Part shown: in pieces, positions 663 to 60,465 of the stretch
Layout: every line of letters begins with the position of its first letter
Numbering within the stretch: the stretch's first letter is position 1
DNA from: Gammaproteobacteria bacterium
Lineage (GTDB): Bacteria > Pseudomonadota > Gammaproteobacteria > QZLD01
DNA: 64,000 bases
Reading direction: 5' to 3'
Assembly: GCA_033852155.1 (NCBI GenBank)
Contig: JAWSVA010000004.1
Coordinates: forward strand, 7,830 to 71,829
Made by a program: the position numbers and the translations under genes
Notes under the pieces: generated by a model
The model's input: only the letters and a program-made list of their open reading frames with translations
What the model was told of the DNA's origin: nothing
The model's database searches: none

Positions 663-1985
663 TTAAACCAGTTTAGCACGCTTAAGCCCTTTTATTCCTC
701 GGCTTTTCCCTTGACGTTCATTTTCAATTGTTTTCTTAGACTCAAGCTGCTTTTTTACAATGCTCTCTGCAATTACCATAATGGCTATATAATGATAAGG
801 AAGGTCCCAATAAGCCATCCCTTTAAATGCACCGCCGATGGCCCAGCAGATCATGGCTATCTGCAGCATTGTCGCAAGATCCTTAGCCCAGGCTAAGTCT
901 TTATGCTCTCCAGCCAACTTTCTAATCTTGCCCCCTGTTATAAAACCAAAAAAGTTTAATAACAGGTACAGAATCAACCCTATAAATCCATGTTCACCTA
1001 AAACTTCAAAATAAATACTATGGGCATCACGCGCTATCTCCATCTCTTTATTATATTTTTCATAGGTTTTAAACGTGAACATCCTATAACCACCGCCAGT
1101 TAACGGGTGGTCTGTTGCAACCCATGTGGCAAGATACCAGGCATCGTAGCGCCCTTGCATTGAGAGATCCTCTTCATAGTCACCGATACTATCCATTCGT
1201 TGAAACCACTGCTGCGGCAAGACGTTATATGCTCCAATAGCTCCAATAGCAACCAGTAAAAAAATAACTTTTCTATGTTTGCTTAAATAAACCATCATGA
1301 AAAAACATGGGATTAAGGATATAAAAGCTCCTCGAGAATAAGATGCAATCACTGCCGCTGTACACAATCCCATGAACCCAAATAAACCAAAACGGATCCA
1401 TTTGTTATATGGTTGCAATTGTAAGTACCTGACCAAGGGAAGGATTAAAACTAACGCAATCGCTAACTCATTATTACCCGATATAAATGTATAATCAGGC
1501 CCCCAAACAAGATAATTCCCCCCTGTTGCTATCGCAAACAAACCACCTTTAACACCATAAAAACCTATGGATAAAACAATAACCCAAACCAATTGATTCA
1601 ATCTGTCTTTAGTATTTATTAGATATAAAGTAAGAAAAATTGCCAACTGTATTTTTAGCACCCTCATCCACTCTACATGTGCTAATTTTGGTTCAAAGGC
1701 GAACTGTGTGGTAATTGACATCCACACAACAAATAACAACAAAATAACAATCGCAGGTGTCCATGGTATCTTACGTTTCTCCATTTTATCTGGGCAAAAA
1801 ATAGCTGCAGCAATAGTAACTACGGCTATTACTAATGCGAATGGGAATGAATAAGCGAACCCATAGGTGAGGCGATGGGGACTCATATATCCAATCCAAG
1901 ACCACATTATTATTCCCAAATAGGGGCGATAAAAGATAAAGGGGATAGAACCAAAAACCGCCAGAAGAACTATTAGATCTCTCAT
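663..1985 (-). CDS. Polytopic membrane protein, O-antigen-ligase/Wzy_C-like. Resembles the exosortase-A-associated putative O-glycosylation ligase.
   Basis: 440 aa and highly hydrophobic, with about 10 or more predicted TM segments. It has a periplasmic loop of the kind seen in Wzy_C proteins. Its stop overlaps the upstream glycosyltransferase start by 4 nt, suggesting coupling. It is the last gene in the XrtA locus. Confidence 0.55.
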   Translation of the reverse strand: MRDLIVLLAVFGSIPFIFYRPYLGIIMWSWIGYMSPHRLTYGFAYSFPFALVIAVVTIAAAIFCPDKMEKRKIPWTPAIVILLLFVVWMSITTQFAFEPKLAHVEWMRVLKIQLAIFLTLYLINTKDRLNQLVWVIVLSIGFYGVKGGLFAIATGGNYLVWGPDYTFISGNNELAIALVLILPLVRYLQLQPYNKWIRFGLFGFMGLCTAAVIASYSRGAFISLIPCFFMMVYLSKHRKVIFLLVAIGAIGAYNVLPQQWFQRMDSIGDYEEDLSMQGRYDAWYLATWVATDHPLTGGGYRMFTFKTYEKYNKEMEIARDAHSIYFEVLGEHGFIGLILYLLLNFFGFITGGKIRKLAGEHKDLAWAKDLATMLQIAMICWAIGGAFKGMAYWDLPYHYIAIMVIAESIVKKQLESKKTIENERQGKSRGIKGLKRAKLV

Positions 1986-3208
1986 GAGCTTAATTTCCCA
2001 TCAATAATAGAAGTAAAGATATCCAGCTGGCCCTGAGTTGTTTGTCTCCAGCAATTTTCAGATCCAATCGCAGCCACTGTTTTCCTTTTCAACCCTTTAT
2101 TAAGCATTGTTCGTATTGCTTTGGTTAAAGCAGCATCGGTTCTATCATTTACTATTGTTCCGCATTCATCCGACAAGATCTCCGACACCCCACCTACATT
2201 TGTCGCCACTACTGGCGTTCCGCATGCAAGTGACTCTAATACTACATTGGGCATCCCCTCTCTACTAGATGCCAGCACCAATAGATCCGCTGAAGTATAA
2301 TAATCCCGTAACTGACTTTGTGATAAGTTTGAAATAAATCTTACACTATCAGATATCCTTAGATCAGCAGCCTGTTGTTGCAGGTTCTGCCTCTCCTCTC
2401 CATCACCAATTATAATTAAATTCACATTAGGTATTAGATTCGCATCAGACAATTTGGCAAGAGCAGCTATTACCAGATCAAATCCTTTTAACTTAGTAAG
2501 ATTACCAACAGATAAGATAGTATTTGGTTTGATATTTAACTTATTTCGTAAAATATTACGTTCATCAACCGATATGGGATGAAAAATTTCCTTATCCACT
2601 CCATTACGTAAAACATGGATTTTTTCCGCATCAACCCCTTTCGCAATTAGCTTTTGCCGTAGAGAATCTGCAACGGTAATTATGCTGTTGCTTTGTAGTG
2701 CTGATTTTTTAATCAATCTACCTGCTAACTGATAATCAGCAAATAGATTAACATCAGTTCCACGAGCCGTGATAACCAAAGGCTTATTTAGTTTTTTTGC
2801 CAAAATCGCAGCGGCAACACCATCTGGATAAAAATAGTGTGCATCGATAATATCAAAGTCAAAACCTTGGTTTATAAGACTTTTAACAACAGGTAGAGCA
2901 GCCCTTGCCATCATCATCGGGGTGATCGCGCCACCAAATTTTGGCAGGATAAAATACCTCGGATGATAAACATCTATACCGTTTAACGTTTCATGTTTTG
3001 GAACAGAATCAGATTCAGCATAACGTTTAAAAGCACCAGTTTTTATCGGAAAGGTTGCTATCGGAGCAACCACTTTGGTCTCTACCTGCTCTGATTTTAA
3101 TAGCTGACGCAGGCGTGTCTCAACGAATATGCCATGCCTGGGGCGCTGTGAATTTGGGTAGAGGGAGCTGAAAAGCAAGGTTTTGATCATTATACTCCTG
3201 AGCTCCAA
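1982..3208 (-). CDS. GT4-family (GT-B fold) glycosyltransferase
   Basis: 408 aa with a C-terminal EX7E-like region (SSREGMPNVVLESLACGTPVVATNVGG) typical of the RfaG/GT1 superfamily. Confidence 0.75.
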   Translation of the reverse strand: MELRSIMIKTLLFSSLYPNSQRPRHGIFVETRLRQLLKSEQVETKVVAPIATFPIKTGAFKRYAESDSVPKHETLNGIDVYHPRYFILPKFGGAITPMMMARAALPVVKSLINQGFDFDIIDAHYFYPDGVAAAILAKKLNKPLVITARGTDVNLFADYQLAGRLIKKSALQSNSIITVADSLRQKLIAKGVDAEKIHVLRNGVDKEIFHPISVDERNILRNKLNIKPNTILSVGNLTKLKGFDLVIAALAKLSDANLIPNVNLIIIGDGEERQNLQQQAADLRISDSVRFISNLSQSQLRDYYTSADLLVLASSREGMPNVVLESLACGTPVVATNVGGVSEILSDECGTIVNDRTDAALTKAIRTMLNKGLKRKTVAAIGSENCWRQTTQGQLDIFTSIIDGKLSS

Positions 3209-3416
3209 AGAAGTTTTTCAGGATAATAGGCTTTATATGCATTCCCACGCAGAGCATGGGAACGAGAAAAGTTCCCTGAGCGTAGCCGAAGGGTCGCCAT
3301 TCGTCCTGAGCCTGTCGAAGCATGATCAATGGGGTCAGAGTCAATGATTTTAAGATCCCTGAGCGTAGCCGAAGGGTCGAAAGAAAAAACATTGACTCTG
3401 ACCCCATTGATCTTAA
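3209..3416. repeat. Composite extragenic repeat element. It has a 23-bp perfect inverted repeat (3324-3346 and 3390-3412) and two direct copies of the 23-mer ccctgagcgtagccgaagggtcg (3274-3296 and 3357-3379), plus a degenerate third copy at 3301-3320.
   Basis: Read directly from the sequence. The element fills the gap between the asnB-like stop and the glycosyltransferase start. A related degenerate copy lies at 36203-36237. Confidence 0.7.
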
Positions 3417-5324
3417 TCATGCAAAAGTCTTCCTGCAAAATGCTTCAAACATTAACAGTGACCATAGCAGTGTACTAAAGTCACGCATTCCAGACTGGTG
3501 TTGTTCAACCAACCATTTAATATATTCCATATCAAATATTTCGGTATCAGCTAAAACTGGCCCCAACAGAGAATCACGCAAACGCTGTTTTAATGGGCCA
3601 CGAAACCACTCTGCCAACGGCACTGAAAACCCCATCTTTGGTCGATATAAAATTGAATCTGGAACCATTGGCTCTAGGGCTTTTTTAAAGATATATTTGC
3701 CTTCATTCCCTTTTACTTTGTATTCCGGCTTTATCCCAGATATCCACTCCACAAACTTGTGATCTAGAATAGGTACCCGCACTTCTAAACTGTGAGCCAT
3801 GCTGGCACGATCCACCTTAGTTAAAATATCACCAGGCAGGTAAGTTTTTAAATCGACATATTGAATACGGGAAAGGGAATCATCTTTTGGGCATTTATCC
3901 ATCTGTTCACGGAAAAACTGTTTAACGCTGTAGCCATTCAGATCTTGCTTAAACTTATTCGAGAATAACTTTCCACGCCATGCCTCTGGCACAAATGAAA
4001 CAGCATGCAGGTAGCCCTCTGCATCATCCATTGCCAATGACTGAAATGTAGATTTGGCACGAAACATCTGCGGCAACCAATCAAATTTAGGGTAGATTTT
4101 ACCCAAGAAACTAAATAACGGTCTTCGAATACAAGTAGGAATCTTATTGCGCACTTTGTTTTCATAAAATGCAAAACGATGGCGGCGATAACCAGACATC
4201 AGCTCATCTGCACCATCTCCTGAAAGAGATACGGTTACATGCTTACGCGCAAGTTCACAAACGCGATAGGTTGGAATAGCCGAGCTATCAGCATATGGTT
4301 CATCATAAATCGCTGCCAACTCATCGATCAGATCAAAATCATCAGCACCAACATGCTCAGAGTGATGATTAGTCTTATAGCGATCCGCTATCATCTGCGC
4401 ATATTCAGACTCATTAAATTTTTTACTTCCAAACGCAATCGAGCAGGTTTCTACCGGTTTGTCCGAAATCTTTGACATCAGAGCTACGATACCACTCGAA
4501 TCTACACCGCCTGATAAAAAAGCTCCAAGCGGTACATCAGCAATCATCCGCCCCTCAATTGCCTCACTTAACTTCTCAATGAGTTCTTTTTGGATCTCTT
4601 GCTCAGAAAGCTCAGAACCATTTTCTCCTACAAGATCTGCAAACGGAACATCCCAGTATTGGGTGATCTGCGGCTGTTTATCACCTAGTTTTATCTGCAA
4701 TAAATTACCAGGAGGCAGCTTATATACCCCGGTAAAAATAGTTTTGGGGTCTGGGATGTAACCAAGGGCAAAATAGTCCTCTACCGCTTGTATATCCATC
4801 TCACGTGAAACTGTTTTTTCAACCAGAAGAGATTTTAGCTCTGAGGCAAATAAAAAACGTCCATCTTCTAATACCGTATAAAAAATGGGCTTGATACCTA
4901 AACGGTCCCGAACTAGTGTGAGCTTTTGATCCCGTTTATCCCAAATTGCAAAGGCAAACATACCACGGAAGTGCTGAATACAATCCTCTTTCCAGGCATG
5001 CCAGGCATTTAGCATAACTTCGGTGTCCGACTTGGTATTAAACGCGTAACCTAGCTCTATTAACTCCTGCCTGACATCAGCAAAATTATAGGCCTCGCCG
5101 TTATAGACGAGAACCACTTGGTCATCCGCCGAGATCATGGGCTGCACGCCCCCGACTATATCTATAATAGAAAGGCGCCTATGCCCTAAAGCAATGCCTT
5201 GTTCCTGAAACACACCTTCGCCATCAGGACCTCGGTGAGTTTGAACATCATTCATCGCTTGCAACAAAGTGATATCGACCTGGCTTTCAGGTCTGGTCGC
5301 AAATATTCCTACAATCCCACACAC
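3417..5324 (-). CDS. Asparagine synthase (glutamine-hydrolysing) paralogue. This is the amidotransferase typically associated with XrtA/PEP-CTERM loci.
   Basis: It has the N-terminal MCGIVGI class-II glutamine amidotransferase Cys nucleophile and the SGGVDSS PP-loop ATP pyrophosphatase motif. It is 635 aa. It sits between glycosyltransferases in the exosortase locus. Confidence 0.8.
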   Translation of the reverse strand: MCGIVGIFATRPESQVDITLLQAMNDVQTHRGPDGEGVFQEQGIALGHRRLSIIDIVGGVQPMISADDQVVLVYNGEAYNFADVRQELIELGYAFNTKSDTEVMLNAWHAWKEDCIQHFRGMFAFAIWDKRDQKLTLVRDRLGIKPIFYTVLEDGRFLFASELKSLLVEKTVSREMDIQAVEDYFALGYIPDPKTIFTGVYKLPPGNLLQIKLGDKQPQITQYWDVPFADLVGENGSELSEQEIQKELIEKLSEAIEGRMIADVPLGAFLSGGVDSSGIVALMSKISDKPVETCSIAFGSKKFNESEYAQMIADRYKTNHHSEHVGADDFDLIDELAAIYDEPYADSSAIPTYRVCELARKHVTVSLSGDGADELMSGYRRHRFAFYENKVRNKIPTCIRRPLFSFLGKIYPKFDWLPQMFRAKSTFQSLAMDDAEGYLHAVSFVPEAWRGKLFSNKFKQDLNGYSVKQFFREQMDKCPKDDSLSRIQYVDLKTYLPGDILTKVDRASMAHSLEVRVPILDHKFVEWISGIKPEYKVKGNEGKYIFKKALEPMVPDSILYRPKMGFSVPLAEWFRGPLKQRLRDSLLGPVLADTEIFDMEYIKWLVEQHQSGMRDFSTLLWSLLMFEAFCRKTFA

Positions 5325-12590: not shown

Positions 12591-13694
12591 TTAATTACCG
12601 CCATCTTGGTTAGAGCCAAACTGTTTGCGAATATTTCCAAATAAGATTTCATGAAGATATTCAATTTTCATCTCCAGTTTATTAACTTTTTTCTCTAATC
12701 CTTCTATCTTTTCTTCAGCCCCTTCAAGTGCTGCTGAAGTTATGGCCTTATATTCATCGTAATTTCTTTGCGGTGTACCAGGCTTGGTCTTTTTACTTGA
12801 TTCAGATGATTCCGCAATACACTTATCAAAAAACCGCTCCGAAATATCTACATCATCTTTTTGTGACTCATGAGTTATAGCAAGCATTTCCCCTTTTAGC
12901 TCATTAACAACTCTTATCGTTACATCGCTATTAAAGTGATCAAGCTCTTCAATCGCACCAAGCAATAGCAGCCTATTACACAATCTATTAATTTTACGAG
13001 GGATACCGCCAGAGTTTTCAAAAATTGACCTTAAAGCATCATCAGCAAACTCTGGCCTACTCTTCCAGCCAGATTTAATTAAACGATAAAGAATATAGTC
13101 CTTTGTCTCTTCTGAACTTAATGGTTCTAGATGGCAAGAAGCTATTATTCTTTGCCGAAACTGCTCCATAGATTCATGCCCAAGCAAATACTGTAGTTCA
13201 ATCTGCCCCAATAAAAAGCACTGTAATACTGGCTTACCTTTATAACTTATATTAGAAAGCATACGCAGCTCTTCTAAACCTGATAACGACAAATTCTGAG
13301 CTTCGTCAATTACAAGCAATACTCTCTTTCCATCTTTAGAAACCTTAAACAGATACTCTTCAAGCTTGCCAATTGCTTGAGGTTTTGTCAGCCCTTTACT
13401 ATCAATTTTCAAGGCTGAGCAAACCATATATGGGATATCATCCCCATCTAACTGAGTTGTAACAATTCTTGAAGCTATAACTGGACCAAACTCTAATACT
13501 GAAAACAACCTTTCAACCAAGGTTGTTTTACCAGTACCAATATCGCCAGTAATAACAATAAAACCTTCACCTTGCTTTAATCCATATTGGAGATAAGCGA
13601 ACCCTTGCTTATGTACCTTGCTACCAAAAAACAGGTCCATATTTGGAGTTAGTTGAAAAGGGTTGCCTTTAAATCCGTAAAAATCTTCGTACAT
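12591..13694 (-). CDS. AAA-type ATPase (ExeA-like) of the XrtA/PEP-CTERM-associated type.
   Basis: 367 aa. The Walker A motif is GDIGTGKTT and Walker B is LLVIDEAQNL. There is a C-terminal coiled-coil tail. Confidence 0.65.
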   Translation of the reverse strand: MYEDFYGFKGNPFQLTPNMDLFFGSKVHKQGFAYLQYGLKQGEGFIVITGDIGTGKTTLVERLFSVLEFGPVIASRIVTTQLDGDDIPYMVCSALKIDSKGLTKPQAIGKLEEYLFKVSKDGKRVLLVIDEAQNLSLSGLEELRMLSNISYKGKPVLQCFLLGQIELQYLLGHESMEQFRQRIIASCHLEPLSSEETKDYILYRLIKSGWKSRPEFADDALRSIFENSGGIPRKINRLCNRLLLLGAIEELDHFNSDVTIRVVNELKGEMLAITHESQKDDVDISERFFDKCIAESSESSKKTKPGTPQRNYDEYKAITSAALEGAEEKIEGLEKKVNKLEMKIEYLHEILFGNIRKQFGSNQDGGN

Positions 13695-13739: not shown

Positions 13740-15182
13740 TTAATATTTCAGCTCAGCCCCAACAGTAAATTTTGCCTGTTTATATTCAAAAGCGGCTTCT
13801 GTGCCATCACGAATTCCTGCTTGAACAGCAGTATACCAGATTGCTTTTTTACTCATGTTTCTAGTGTATTTCAATGAGTAAGTGCTCATATCATCTAATC
13901 TATCATTTAAATCATCTCCAAGCCTCCACCATCTTAGGTTAGCTCTGATATTTGATTTACTTGATAGGGTATAATCCCACTGAATATCTGCCCCAATAAA
14001 AATCTCATTCTGCCCTAAATTTCTATAAATTCGATCTTCGTATTTCAAGGTTAAATCGATACTGTTTTTTACACCCTCAACATTCCAGGTGAGACGTGTT
14101 TTTTTCTGTACATAGACATCACTTTCTCCACGATAAAACTTATATAAACGTTCATCAACAAGCTGATCTGTAATATCCTGAGTTACTCGATTTACCTGCT
14201 GTTCGCTATAACTTAGGCTTAATGCAGTTTTATTATTTTCATAGCTGAAACTTGCAAGATATGTGTCACCATAAAGGTCTTCCCCACCACCAAACTCAAG
14301 CTTTGTTCTAGTTGATAGCGAGTAAGCAATTTTTGCATCCCAAACATTACCTTCAAACCAGGAATAATTGGTAGATGAGCTAAGCCGCTCCCATTTCTTC
14401 CCAAGCATAATATAAAATATAGCTCTATTAAAAATAGGGTAACTAGATACCAAATCTACTTGTCTATATTCTGAAGCATTAAAGCCTTCAGTTTGTATAT
14501 ATTCGAAGCTGGAATTAATATTCCAATTAAACAATGCTGATCTAGATGCTGTGCCAAATGATACAATCGCATCATGCTCTTCAACATCATCGATTCCTCG
14601 ATCATAATATATTTTTCCGTGCGACGATGAATAACTAACGCCTAAATCACCAGATATCGGCAGTACAAACCTAGGCTTAATCTGCCCAGTATATTTATTA
14701 GCGCTGTTGGCGCCATAGATCAATCCATCAAATGATATTGCATCTTCAGCATCTATTACTTCACTTTCATGTGAGACATAAAAATCAGTAAAAAACCTAT
14801 CCCTGATTAACTCAACCCCAAGATCACCTCTTAGCAGATGTTGCATGTCATTCATACCGCTATTTTTGGCGTACATATACCCCGAAGCTCTATAATCCAT
14901 ATAGGCATTAACTCTACGGCCTTGGCTCTTAAGGTTCACAAAAGGCGAAACTAATAGATAGCTATCTGATTCACGTTGCGCAGCCCCAATATCAACATTA
15001 TCTGTAAAAACATATTCTGAGGTAACCCCAGCATTAAGCTCCAACTTTTTTGCATATATGGTTGTTGAAAATAAAAGCAGTAAAACCACAACTGATTTAT
15101 TAACGAATACAAATGGGTTTTTAATTAAATAAACCACGGCATTCCCTCGTCTATTTATATTGTCTTCTATATGATGAACCAT
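13740..15182 (-). CDS. Putative outer-membrane beta-barrel protein of the PEP-CTERM-system-associated type.
   Basis: 480 aa. A hydrophobic signal-like segment VVVLLLLFSTTIYA lies near the N-terminus. The composition is rich in alternating aromatic residues and ends in a terminal ...AELKY (aromatic C-terminus). The annotated start overlaps the upstream gene by 32 nt, so the true start may be further downstream. Confidence 0.5.
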   Translation of the reverse strand: MVHHIEDNINRRGNAVVYLIKNPFVFVNKSVVVLLLLFSTTIYAKKLELNAGVTSEYVFTDNVDIGAAQRESDSYLLVSPFVNLKSQGRRVNAYMDYRASGYMYAKNSGMNDMQHLLRGDLGVELIRDRFFTDFYVSHESEVIDAEDAISFDGLIYGANSANKYTGQIKPRFVLPISGDLGVSYSSSHGKIYYDRGIDDVEEHDAIVSFGTASRSALFNWNINSSFEYIQTEGFNASEYRQVDLVSSYPIFNRAIFYIMLGKKWERLSSSTNYSWFEGNVWDAKIAYSLSTRTKLEFGGGEDLYGDTYLASFSYENNKTALSLSYSEQQVNRVTQDITDQLVDERLYKFYRGESDVYVQKKTRLTWNVEGVKNSIDLTLKYEDRIYRNLGQNEIFIGADIQWDYTLSSKSNIRANLRWWRLGDDLNDRLDDMSTYSLKYTRNMSKKAIWYTAVQAGIRDGTEAAFEYKQAKFTVGAELKY

Positions 15183-36020: not shown

Positions 36021-36284
36021 AAAAACCTCAAAAAATTCCTACAATTGGTATGGTAGCAGGCAAGAATGCCGCTGCAGATGTGAATTCTAACTTAATTGCC
36101 ATTATTTAGAAAATAAGAGTGTCATTTAATAAATATGGCTATAATTCGCAGGATATTTTTTCAAAGACGCGGCGCAGTGAAGACTTTAGAAGGAGTTGAC
36201 TCCTAGTCAATGACTGCCCTTCGACTACGTTCAGGAACCATGTCTGAAGTTGTAACGCAGTATTCGGAGAAATAAACCAGAATT

Positions 36285-41952: not shown

Positions 41953-42690
41953 TTATGACATGTACATGCCACCATTTACACTAATGGTTTCACCAGTGAT
42001 AAATCCTGCACCTTTAGAGACCAAAAACGATACAGTCTTGGCAATATCTTCAACTTCACCAAGTCTCGCTAACGGAATTTTTGAGGCTAATGCTTCTCTT
42101 TGTTCATCAGACAAAGCTTTTGTCATCTCAGTGTTGATAAACCCAGGGGCTACAACATTTACTGTAATCCCTCTTGAAGCAACCTCTTGCGCTAGTGATT
42201 TTGAAAAACCAACAACACCAGCCTTAGTGGCACAATAATTCGTTTGCCCAGCATTACCCGACAGACCAACAACAGAACCAATTGTAACAATACGCCCTTT
42301 TTTAGCTTTCATCATGCCTCTTAAGCAAGCACGAGACATGCGAAATACTGAGCTTAAGTTTGTATTAACTACAGCGCCCCACTCTTCATCTTTCATTCTC
42401 ATTAAAAGATTATCTTTAGTAATGCCTGCGTTATTAACCAATACTGTCGGAGCACCTAGCTCTTTTGTAATGCTCTTAATAGATTCATCAATCGTTTCTT
42501 GGTCATTTACATTTAGTACTCGGCCTTCACCTTCAAAACCAGCATCTTTTAAGTAATCAGTTATTGATTGTGCAAATTCTTCATTTATATCAGTTCCAAC
42601 AACATAGAAGCCTTGAGCTGCTAGTTCTAAAACTACAGCTTTACCAATACCTCTGCTACAACCTGTTACTAATGCAATCTCTTTACTCAT
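41953..42690 (-). CDS. fabG: 3-oxoacyl-ACP reductase
   Basis: 245 aa SDR. It has the TGCSRGIGKA cofactor motif and YCATKAG active site. Confidence 0.9.
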   Translation of the reverse strand: MSKEIALVTGCSRGIGKAVVLELAAQGFYVVGTDINEEFAQSITDYLKDAGFEGEGRVLNVNDQETIDESIKSITKELGAPTVLVNNAGITKDNLLMRMKDEEWGAVVNTNLSSVFRMSRACLRGMMKAKKGRIVTIGSVVGLSGNAGQTNYCATKAGVVGFSKSLAQEVASRGITVNVVAPGFINTEMTKALSDEQREALASKIPLARLGEVEDIAKTVSFLVSKGAGFITGETISVNGGMYMS

Positions 42691-53187: not shown

Positions 53188-53264
53188 GTCCCGGTAGCTC
53201 AGCAGGATAGAGCAACAGATTCCTAATCTGTAGGCCAGAGGTTCGAATCCTCTTCGGGACACCA
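53188..53264 (+). tRNA. tRNA-Arg (anticodon CCU)
   Basis: The cloverleaf was folded by eye. The acceptor stem is GTCCCGG/TCGGGAC and the anticodon loop is TTCCTAA. The T-arm is AGAGG-TTCGAAT-CCTCT. A 3' CCA is encoded. Confidence 0.85.
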
Positions 53265-53303
53265 TTTTGTTTGATGACTGCTTTAAACAATAACATTGAA
53301 TAT

Positions 53304-53332
53304 AAAAAGGGAGGCAACATGCCTCCCTTTTT
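53304..53332. terminator. Bidirectional rho-independent terminator
   Basis: The hairpin gggaggc-aacat-gcctccc is flanked by AAAAA and TTTTT. It lies between the tRNA and the convergent gene at 53354. Confidence 0.6.
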
Positions 53333-53353
53333 ATATTCAACTGCTCTACTTTT

Positions 53354-60148: not shown

Positions 60149-60465
60149 TGAGCAATATAATCGATAGCGGTTCAACCCTTAGAAATATGGGGTTAGCTGA
60201 CAACAAAAAAGCACAGGCCAACAGTAGCCCAAAAGTTGCTCCTGAAAGCAATGTAGCAGCAGTAAACACTGATTCAGCTGACAAAGTTGAGATCTCAACT
60301 GCTTCAGAAAAATTATCACTAGTTAGAGAAACTATTGCATCGACACCTGAAGTTGACACTGCAAGAGTTGAAGATATTAAAGCAAAAATTGCTGCCGGAG
60401 AATACCCTGTAAACCCTGAGCAAATCGCTGACAAGATGATTGACTTGGAGAAATTGCTCTCCTAG
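60149..60465 (+). CDS. flgM: Anti-sigma-28 factor FlgM
   Basis: About 105 aa from the ATG at 60149, preceded by AGAGGAA. The track start at 60085 is an upstream TTG extension. The C-terminal amphipathic region DTARVEDIKAKIAAGEYPVNPEQIADKMI is typical of FlgM. Confidence 0.8.

Follow-up and report, generated by a model that had tools for sequence, protein, structure and literature searches.

A spacer in an XrtA/PEP-CTERM exopolysaccharide operon filled with nested small hairpin repeats: a probable lineage-specific pile-up

The DNA studied here, a 64-kb stretch of contig JAWSVA010000004.1 from a gammaproteobacterium (referred to at its full length as the window), contains an XrtA/PEP-CTERM exopolysaccharide gene cluster, and within this cluster the spacer between an asnB-like gene and a glycosyltransferase gene is filled with repeats. 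The spacer is probably a lineage-specific pile-up of small noncoding hairpin DNA repeats of two known kinds, with one kind nested in the other: a 25- to 28-nucleotide (nt) unit that resembles the Ssn-related motifs (SRM/NTS) sits in the loop of an inverted doublet that resembles REPINs. Both of these main kinds are spread over many bacterial phyla and are not specific to one genome.

The repeat-filled spacer and its genes

Both genes that flank the spacer are on the minus strand, which corrects an earlier note on this DNA. Homologues of the asnB-like product carry the name XrtA/PEP-CTERM system amidotransferase, and a gene for a Wzy/DUF5935 protein comes after the glycosyltransferase gene. The features of the locus, and one related copy elsewhere in the window, are as follows (strands are given for the features that have one).

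1982..3190, minus strand: GT4 glycosyltransferase gene, downstream of asnB (Pfam Glycos_transf_1, 2.3e-41)
3196..3219, plus strand: remnant like the 23-nt tandem unit of relative L125 (TCCTGAGCTCC...TTTTTC), direct-repeat family D2
3237..3266: hairpin unit ATGCATTCCCACGCAGAGCATGGGAACGAG (DNA fold -7.7 kcal/mol, z = -4.7)
3269..3296, plus strand: SRM-like hairpin unit, copy 1 (AAGTTCCCTGAGCGTAGCCGAAGGGTCG)
3297..3322, plus strand: variant unit CCATTCGTCCTGAGCCTGTCGAAGCA, of the CCGTTCG...CTGAGCyTGTCGAAG type
3324..3330: left half of the host hairpin, GATCAAT, which pairs with 3406-3412 and is also present in relatives L123, L124 and L128
3331..3351, plus strand: left arm of the REPIN-like doublet, GGGGTCAGAGTCAATGATTTT, which opens with the GGGGWSAS motif
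3352..3379, plus strand: SRM-like hairpin unit, copy 2 (AAGATCCCTGAGCGTAGCCGAAGGGTCG), in the doublet loop
3385..3405, minus strand: right arm of the REPIN-like doublet, AAAAACATTGACTCTGACCCC (plus-strand letters)
3406..3412: right half of the host hairpin, ATTGATC
3417..5324, minus strand: asnB-like XrtA/PEP-CTERM-system amidotransferase gene (Pfam Asn_synthase, 3.7e-103, and GATase_7)
36217..36235, minus strand: second-site copy of the 19-nt core, CCTGAACGTAGTCGAAGGG, with two mismatches, in the pilZ-tatD spacer

The glycosyltransferase gene most likely starts at the ATG at 3190-3188 rather than at the TTG at 3208; the 402-amino-acid (aa) product from this ATG has an exact database record, and the resulting N terminus, MIKTLLFSS, is common to the orthologues. 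With this start, the gap to asnB is 226 nt (3191-3416) and not the 208 nt given in the earlier note, which had rightly placed the repeats inside it. The Shine-Dalgarno sequence of the glycosyltransferase gene (AGGAG at 3199-3195) falls within a repeat-like unit, and at the other end of the spacer the foot of the big hairpin lies 4 nt beyond the asnB stop codon (TGA, 3419-3417). The overlapping open reading frames (ORFs) at 3120-3407 (minus), 3190-3438 (minus) and 3322-3762 (plus) matched no Pfam family, consistent with the earlier view that they are spurious. For annotators, such repeats are of practical concern, as they create spurious ORFs and break short-read assemblies; a same-species contig from the Logan collection, L119, ends exactly at window position 3265, the edge of the repeat cluster.

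The inverted repeat that had been described at 3324-3346 and 3390-3412 is indeed perfect over 23 nt, and it extends to 28 nt at 96% identity (3324-3351 and 3385-3412) around a loop of 33 nt. Two exact copies of the 23-mer CCCTGAGCGTAGCCGAAGGGTCG are likewise present (3274-3296 and 3357-3379), the second of them in this loop, and they belong to a longer shared unit of 28 nt with one mismatch (3269-3296 and 3352-3379). With as many as 3 mismatches allowed, the 64 kb holds no further copy of either the arm or the 23-mer, and shuffled sequences gave 0 for both. What had been taken for a degenerate third copy at 3301-3320 turned out to be a distinct family member, since the 21 nt at 3300-3320 (TTCGTCCTGAGCCTGTCGAAG) recur without a change in L016, a locus from Chloroflexota; relatives of this CCGTTCG...CTGAGCyTGTCGAAG-type unit are present in Methylococcales loci as well. 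The hairpin at 3237-3266 (ATTCCCACGCAGAGCATGGGAA) has an ATTCCC...GGGAA core that resembles Neisseria dRS3/NTS in a by-eye comparison with the sequence in PMC11893778; it is multicopy in the unrelated metagenome loci L141, L169 and L211, with 95% identity to L169 over 40 nt. Finally, an exact core of 11 nt suggests that 3196-3219 is homologous to the L125 tandem unit, whose array reads AAGATYCCTGARCTCC...TTTTC. The earlier idea of dispersed REP/MITE-like repeats (repetitive extragenic palindromic sequences or miniature inverted-repeat transposable elements) holds, while that of a single family does not, as at least two unrelated kinds and two further hairpin units make up the mosaic.

Related genomes and the second site

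The spacer differs strongly among relatives. In the outgroup (L346 and L347; AsnB 82% identical), the two genes overlap by 4 nt (TTGA) and are translationally coupled, with no spacer. In L123, L124 and L128 (AsnB 97% identical at the aa and 90% at the nt level), the gap is 41 nt; it was taken from gene coordinates in L128 and read letter by letter in L123 and L124 (TGAttaaGATCAATcaCCCCATTGATCacgcttGAGGGtagtaaATG), where it holds only a 7-bp hairpin (spacer letters TGAttaaGATCAATcaCCCCATTGATC). In L125 to L127 (GCA_033852135.1; 91.5% aa and 84.5% nt identity), the spacer is 102 nt long and has a decayed left arm between GGTCAAT and CCCCGTTGGTC; the right arm and the 19-mer core of the SRM-like unit were both not found in it. 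Since the junctions of the relatives thus measure -4, 41 and 102 nt versus 226 nt in the window, we regard the spacer as a clade-specific accretion. All of the sequence from a conserved GCTT to the glycosyltransferase start codon is new in the window, the ribosome-binding site included. No target-site duplication was visible when the filled and empty asnB sites were compared.

The second site, 33 kb away, is the pilZ-tatD spacer. Its copy of the 19-nt core, for which shuffling gives an expectation of 0, is reproduced in an independent contig, L120, and was not found in the orthologous pilZ-tatD spacers of three related genomes (JAWSVB, JBFPEJ and JAWSVC). The presence/absence polymorphism in relatives that had been suggested for these elements was therefore borne out, the elements being missing from the relatives' asnB spacers and from their second site. 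These three genomes do conserve the adjacent "...tcattgactaggagtcaactcc" flank, which holds the octamer agtcaatg. Because the octamer sits in a flank that unit-less relatives have kept, its likeness to the inverted-repeat arm is a coincidence, and a composite alignment of the second site with the arm scores within about 3 standard deviations of shuffles. Of the sequence relationship proposed earlier for this site, then, the core copy stands and the link of agtcaatg to the arm does not.

Counterparts of the two kinds of repeat

The doublet consists of two inverted copies of GGGGTCAGAGTCAATG(A)TTTT inside the small hairpin just past the asnB stop. The opening letters of the arm, GGGGTCAG, fit GGGGWSAS exactly where the host hairpin ends, and a GTAG tag is not present at the arm end; with this start and no such tag, the doublet corresponds to the TIRYT type rather than to classical REPs, which carry GTAG. 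Genes of the TIRYT type are flanked by terminal repeats that share GGGGWSAS, and families of such repeats are organized as dimers (Di Nocera et al. 2013, PMC3733652). The first 20 nt of the left arm (GGGGTCAGAGTCAATGATTT) are identical to sequence flanking a RAYT-like gene in the metagenome contig L162. This Y1_Tnp gene (949-1659) has GGGGTCAGAGTCA(A/T)TGA units on both sides (790-831 and 1696-1785), one nested palindrome included, and scores 4.7e-15 against Pfam; its best NCBIfam match is the REP-associated tyrosine transposase, at 77 bits versus a cut-off of 80. A second Y1 gene (metagenome contig L167, 3756-4463) lies between inverted ATATTTGGGGTCAGAGTAAAAAC repeats at 3686 and 4474. These genes were found by a motif scan and then examined with Pfam and NCBIfam, a tblastn search with E. 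coli RayT having given almost nothing.

In a scan of metagenomes, the 16-mer GGGGTCAGAGTCAATG of the arm matched more than 120 loci, and many of the matches listed belong to short GGGGTCAGAGTC...GACTCTGACCCC palindromes, to nested palindromes or to tandem arrays. Among the approximately 120 metagenome loci listed, an inverted partner with no more than 3 mismatches lies within 320 nt of the arm 16-mer in 15 matches, for which our own calculation gives an expectation of about 0.14. Viral contigs yielded 11 matches, at or below the rough chance expectation, and we therefore claim no phage link for the arm. At two apparently orthologous metagenome loci, L181 and L220, the 16-bp arms GGGGTCAGAGTCAATG and CATTGACTCTGGCCCC are kept and the 15-nt loop has diverged (aactgcaacagcgtt versus agcagccaagacgtt), which hints that the arms are under constraint or homogenized. 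We also observed that an IS4-like element with a DDE_Tnp_1 transposase (8.3e-19) and ends reading AATGCCAGTAAGTTAAGC... occupies positions 1-1568 of L168, where it adjoins GGGGTCAGAGTC, and that this arrangement recurs in many metagenome loci (L240, L158, L195, L207, L222, L230 and L231). This suggests that this insertion sequence targets the REP-like motif GGGGTCAGAGTC or duplicates it as a 12-bp target site. As a parent of the doublet, the IS4-like DDE element (the "GGGGTCAGAGTCAATG|CCAGTAAGTTAAGC" group) was rejected, as it abuts the motif and does not end in it.

The SRM-like unit has the core CCTGAGCGNAGCCGAAGGG (19-nt core letters CCTGAGCGTAGCCGAAGGG) and occurs in the forms AAGNTCCCTGAGCGTAGCCGAAGGGTC, GTCACCCTGAGCGTAGCCGAAGGGTGA and GCCTGCCCTGAGCGTAGCCGAAGGG. 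Its stem is short and made of G-C pairs, and a tandem G.A pair and a mini-hairpin, GCGNAGC, complete it; the free loop base of the latter agrees with the "mini-hairpin DNA" rule (reviewed in PMC13037366). A conserved tag of six positions precedes the core on its 5' side and reads GCCTGY, GTTTAY or GTCAY elsewhere and AAGNTC in this lineage, and in genome and viral loci alike conservation stops sharply after GGG, with information of about 0 directly 3' of the core. At least 11 phyla have the exact 19-mer, which was found at more than 118 genome loci where a uniform model predicts about 4 by chance. The matches listed come from hosts such as Acidobacteriota, Chloroflexota, Bacteroidota, Cyanobacteria, Methylococcales and other Gammaproteobacteria as well as Planctomycetota, Nitrospirota, Verrucomicrobiota, Clostridia and Patescibacteria. 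In a scan of the complete viral collection, the exact 19-mer was present at 12 loci and, with the loop base left free, at 76 loci with 81 sites (29 with A, 28 with G and 12 each with T and C), while the reversed sequence gave 0. A full-text literature search for the repeat sequences returned nothing relevant. To our knowledge, no universal RNA (rRNA, RNase P or tmRNA) provides a convincing match that would explain the origin of the 19-mer.

The unit is mostly extragenic: 103 of the 127 occurrences of the 19-mer (81%, among the matches listed) lie outside called ORFs, and 63% of the occurrences, versus 20% of random positions, lack a spanning open frame of at least 150 codons. With respect to codirectional genes, the core is on the transcribed strand in 21 of 42 gene contexts and on the other strand in 21. 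Stems of 7 bp or more can form between its flanks in 18.5% of occurrences versus 5% of controls, inverted doublets of the unit are common among the genome loci listed, and at the Nostoc loci L006, L036, L053, L066 and L084 the exact 19-mer is nested in related units. In relative L125, a perfect 25-nt inverted pair of the AAGATC-tagged unit (AAGATCCCTGAGCGTAGCCGAAGGG) surrounds an array of four 23-nt tandem copies in the flaG-flagellin spacer. This array (L125 19713-19827, GCA_033852135.1) reads AAGATYCCTGAACTCCAGTTTTC, and it shares its 5' end, AAGATCCCTGA, with the unit. Three JAWSVC loci (L008, L030 and L042) carry the unit, in L030 and L042 within larger shared repeats; these (GCA_033852075.1) are MITE-like, with terminal inverted repeats CTGTCCGGGGAAAATATTGC and two inverted 19-mer units in their interior.

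With regard to a partner protein, clustering of 2,776 neighboring ORFs all against all revealed no dominant candidate, and the sole informative cluster was that of small GIY-YIG proteins. With a motif scan added, small single-domain, Ssn-like GIY-YIG genes were found at 7 of the 118 19-mer loci among the matches listed versus 0 of 120 control loci; the gene is at most 250 nt from the unit in five loci, and units stand on both sides of it in L039, L101, L106 and L112. Conversely, two of three plasmid loci chosen by GIY-YIG homology alone have the unit family adjoining the gene. Ssn is a single-domain GIY-YIG nuclease that cuts single-stranded DNA (ssDNA) just upstream of its motif, and SRM/NTS repeats are hairpins of 20 to 50 nt to which a conserved flank on the upstream side gives an orientation; they are found in many phyla, in hundreds of copies (Chenal et al. 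2025, PMC11893778). Judged from these sequence features, our unit behaves like the Ssn-related motifs that such nucleases recognize.

Several known systems share traits with the locus. The window resembles the REP/REPIN sequences with their RAYT transposases, the "TIRtron" variant included (Di Nocera et al. 2013, PMC3733652; Bertels and Rainey 2011, PMC3116915), in having two inverted units of 21 to 28 nt that form one long hairpin at an extragenic site, in the GGGGWSAS-type arm start, in the first 20 nt being shared with the flank of the L162 Y1 gene and, as a close variant, of the L167 gene, in the nested and tandem arrangements at other loci and in the lack of a target-site duplication. It differs in that the doublet is without a GTAG tag and is the only one in approximately 210 kb of lineage sequence, in that the sequence available for this organism shows no RAYT-like gene and in that the loop holds a foreign repeat unit. 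The SRM-like unit, as a hairpin repeat of 25 to 28 nt, has in common with SRM/NTS an orienting conserved 5' flank, a mostly extragenic and multicopy occurrence in many phyla, a position on either side of small GIY-YIG genes, clustering near genes for surface structures and, in a subset of units, the NTS 5' tag (C/T)GTCA(T/C). Unlike the perfect 7-bp palindrome of SRM/NTS, its stem has a tandem G.A mismatch and a mini-hairpin; its commonest tags, GCCTGY and GTTTAY, and the AAGNTC of this lineage are different; the published degenerate pattern fails; and no ssn-like gene is present in the window.

Enterobacterial BIMEs (bacterial interspersed mosaic elements) likewise bring several short palindromic repeat types together in one extragenic spacer within an operon, with a possible effect on mRNA stability or polarity, but their unit sequences are different and they alternate regularly, whereas the window has one unit in the loop of another. 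MITEs derived from insertion sequences are similar in being short and noncoding, with terminal inverted repeats and presence/absence polymorphism; they differ from the element in the window in that no target-site duplication and no parent DDE insertion sequence with these ends was found for it. The SDRs of Nostocaceae, attributed to Elhai et al. in 2008, are said to be 21 to 27 nt long, nested in other repeats and hairpins and without an encoded transposase. By these features, size and nesting above all, the 25-nt unit is alike, being nested in the doublet loop and in the Nostoc units and having no transposase of its own. The SRM-like unit is, however, present in at least 11 phyla, whereas SDRs are described as confined to Nostocaceae (PMC5861425). 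A cyanobacterial origin, or a relationship to HIP1-linked SDRs, was dropped from consideration, as the window contains a single GCGATCGC site at a GC content of 38% and the relatives are metagenome-assembled genomes of Gammaproteobacteria.

Spread of the repeats, alternative explanations and minor observations

Both kinds of repeat are already known. The novelty lies in a widespread class of units that the published SRM pattern does not detect, in the nesting of such a unit in the loop of a REPIN-type doublet and in comparisons that agree with gains at two sites. Our data show the anatomy of the locus, a gain confined to this lineage, the broad distribution of both repeats and, in other genomes, their association with two enzyme families. 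The REPIN-like doublet is most likely a nonautonomous element that is moved or maintained in trans by a RAYT-like enzyme (IS200-type, HUH/Y1). Both this enzyme family and that of the GIY-YIG nucleases may spread repeats as ssDNA and prefer exposed hairpin loops, and the locus can be viewed as a compact case of RAYT-type and Ssn-type repeat systems, both dealing in single-strand hairpins, nested together. The arrival of the repeats would have had side effects: the operon mRNA would gain a hairpin of -50 kcal/mol 4 nt after the asnB stop, the ancestral translational coupling of asnB with the glycosyltransferase gene would be lost, and the downstream gene would draw its ribosome-binding site from a repeat unit.

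Several points weigh against the interpretation of the spacer as a lineage-specific pile-up of mobile repeats. The relatives compared are different species and not strains, with asnB at 90% and 84.5% nt identity. Owing to GGGGT/CCCC microhomology, the boundaries of the insertion at the asnB site are ambiguous, and the decayed left arm in L125 means that the doublet may be old at this site and have been maintained or re-formed there. The 64-kb window and approximately 150 kb of the relatives' loci contain neither a Y1 transposase gene nor one for a GIY-YIG protein, and the window has one GGGGTCAGAGTC doublet and the approximately 150 kb from relatives none. With one doublet in approximately 210 kb of the lineage, a high copy number in the source genome is conjectural, and the link to a RAYT-like enzyme in this organism is one that we infer, given a single doublet and no Y1 gene in these sequences. 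The published SRM pattern, HGTCWYN(0-2)YYVSBRHN(0-5)WNVSBRGN(0-2)RNCYNB, matches 0 of 127 occurrences of the 19-mer, each taken with 12-nt flanks, in a test in which the NTS positive control does match; for this reason, we file the unit as SRM-like in behavior and not as a member by the published definition. Lastly, transposition of SRMs is itself only hypothesized in the literature (PMC11893778). The window contains a single match to the pattern, at 42121-42153 (TGTCATCTCAGTGTTGATAAACCCAGGGGCTAC), which is probably due to chance, given its location within a coding region; the rate in shuffles is 0.07 matches per window.

It is conceivable, if doubtful at present, that the 25-nt unit (tag plus CCTGAGCGNAGCCGAAGGG) is a pan-bacterial, ultrasmall nonautonomous mobile element that is copied via ssDNA by Ssn-type GIY-YIG nucleases and inserts preferentially in exposed hairpin loops, those of REPINs included. 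In favor of this idea count the lineage-specific gains at two sites, unit boundaries that are equally sharp in different phyla, the nesting in hairpin loops and the presence of units on either side of GIY-YIG genes. The NTS-ssnA-NTS layout has been likened to an insertion sequence by those who described it (PMC11893778). If it is true, Ssn and SRM would form a transposition system comparable to RAYT and REPIN, and not only one for the restriction of transforming ssDNA, and this system would include a large unit class missed by the published SRM pattern. Insertion into hairpin loops would bear on the open question of the Ssn paper, the mobility of NTS-ssnA-NTS modules and of the repeats, and would offer a wider set of nuclease/target pairs for ssDNA tools.

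An alternative that we regard as unlikely, and which was the functional proposal of the earlier note, is that the spacer hairpin is a selected cis-acting RNA element that tunes the enzyme ratio by protecting the asnB message from 3' exonucleases, by serving as a processing site or by causing polarity. REP elements of E. coli stabilize upstream mRNA and, near a stop codon, can affect translation termination, and the position of the hairpin directly past the asnB stop would suit such a role. Its fold would suit it as well: in the direction of transcription the doublet folds as RNA at -50.6 kcal/mol, and the whole spacer does so at -92.1 kcal/mol (z = -6.9), which 0 of 200 shuffles equaled. As the earlier note had held, this very stable hairpin lacks a U-tract and is no intrinsic terminator; the stem is followed by AUGCUUCGACAGG, no terminator-like site was found in the element on either strand, and the transcribed strand of the spacer contains no convincing promoter-like site. 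However, orthologous operons manage without the structure, their gaps of -4, 41 and 102 nt folding at -6 (L123) and -21 (L125) kcal/mol where a spacer was folded. The arms and the loop unit are, moreover, generic repeats common to distant phyla, and the units occur either way round relative to transcription (21 to 21) and also in unrelated spacers. As DNA, the doublet folds at -29.5 kcal/mol (z = -9.7), either strand giving about -30. In Rfam 15, the only match of the element is a spurious one to the plant MIR161 family, a generic long hairpin, at 32.8 bits versus a cut-off of 90. With no strand bias and no Rfam match, we read the units as DNA-level elements. The hairpin may plausibly act as a barrier to 3' exonucleases or exert some polarity; an RNA-level role of this sort is possible, but the data can be explained without it. 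That the structure is not conserved and the units show no strand bias speaks against such a role as the primary function. The insert is probably a passenger that the operon tolerates, even though it broke the coupling and supplied a new ribosome-binding site.

Improbable, too, is the view that the repeats mark or serve a recombination junction for swaps of surface-polysaccharide cassettes, a kind of role that dRS3/NTS repeats have in Neisseria next to variable surface-antigen genes, so that the spacer would be an exchange scar. The glycosyltransferase genes are 85% and 77% identical at the nt level where asnB is 90% and 84.5% identical, the downstream genes thus being more diverged, and the 5' untranslated region and ribosome-binding site of the glycosyltransferase gene have been replaced entirely. 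The L125 unit pair, in the flaG-flagellin spacer, is at another variable surface locus, and Neisseria has NTS clusters adjoining surface genes (PMC11893778). All relatives, however, have the same genes in the same order on both sides, and the upstream glycosyltransferase gene is also fairly diverged (84 to 86% nt identity), so that there is no sharp break in identity at the spacer. This explanation also leaves the nested architecture and the second site, in a housekeeping spacer, without an account. It is compatible with a lineage-specific pile-up of hairpin repeats and does not exclude it. That the repeats are chance matches or an assembly artifact is hardly credible, since shuffles give 0 matches, the same units occur in hundreds of independent assemblies, complete genomes included, and the second site is reproduced in an independent contig, even if the break of L119 at 3265 indicates that assemblers struggle there.

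Some further features of the window and its surroundings were noted. A gene pair for a ParE toxin and an RHH antitoxin directly follows the polysaccharide deacetylase gene that ends the exopolysaccharide cluster, and relatives conserve it. Its positions, just past the low end of the window's cluster, are as follows.

L119, 3602-4155: ParE/RHH pair
L125, 15536-16089: ParE/RHH pair
L126, 8210-8763: ParE/RHH pair

Within the exopolysaccharide cluster, an exact 17-mer direct repeat, ATCTGCCCCAATAAAAA, is present at 13201-13217 and 13986-14002, 785 nt apart. Elsewhere in the window, a perfect 16-nt palindrome, AGTTGAGATCTCAACT, is located at 60285-60300. Applied to the whole window, Rfam returned one tRNA only (69 bits), at 53188-53261; it is followed at 53296-53340 by a perfect 21-bp inverted repeat (TTGAATATAAAAAGGGAGGCA and TGCCTCCCTTTTTATATTCAA) that looks like a bidirectional terminator.

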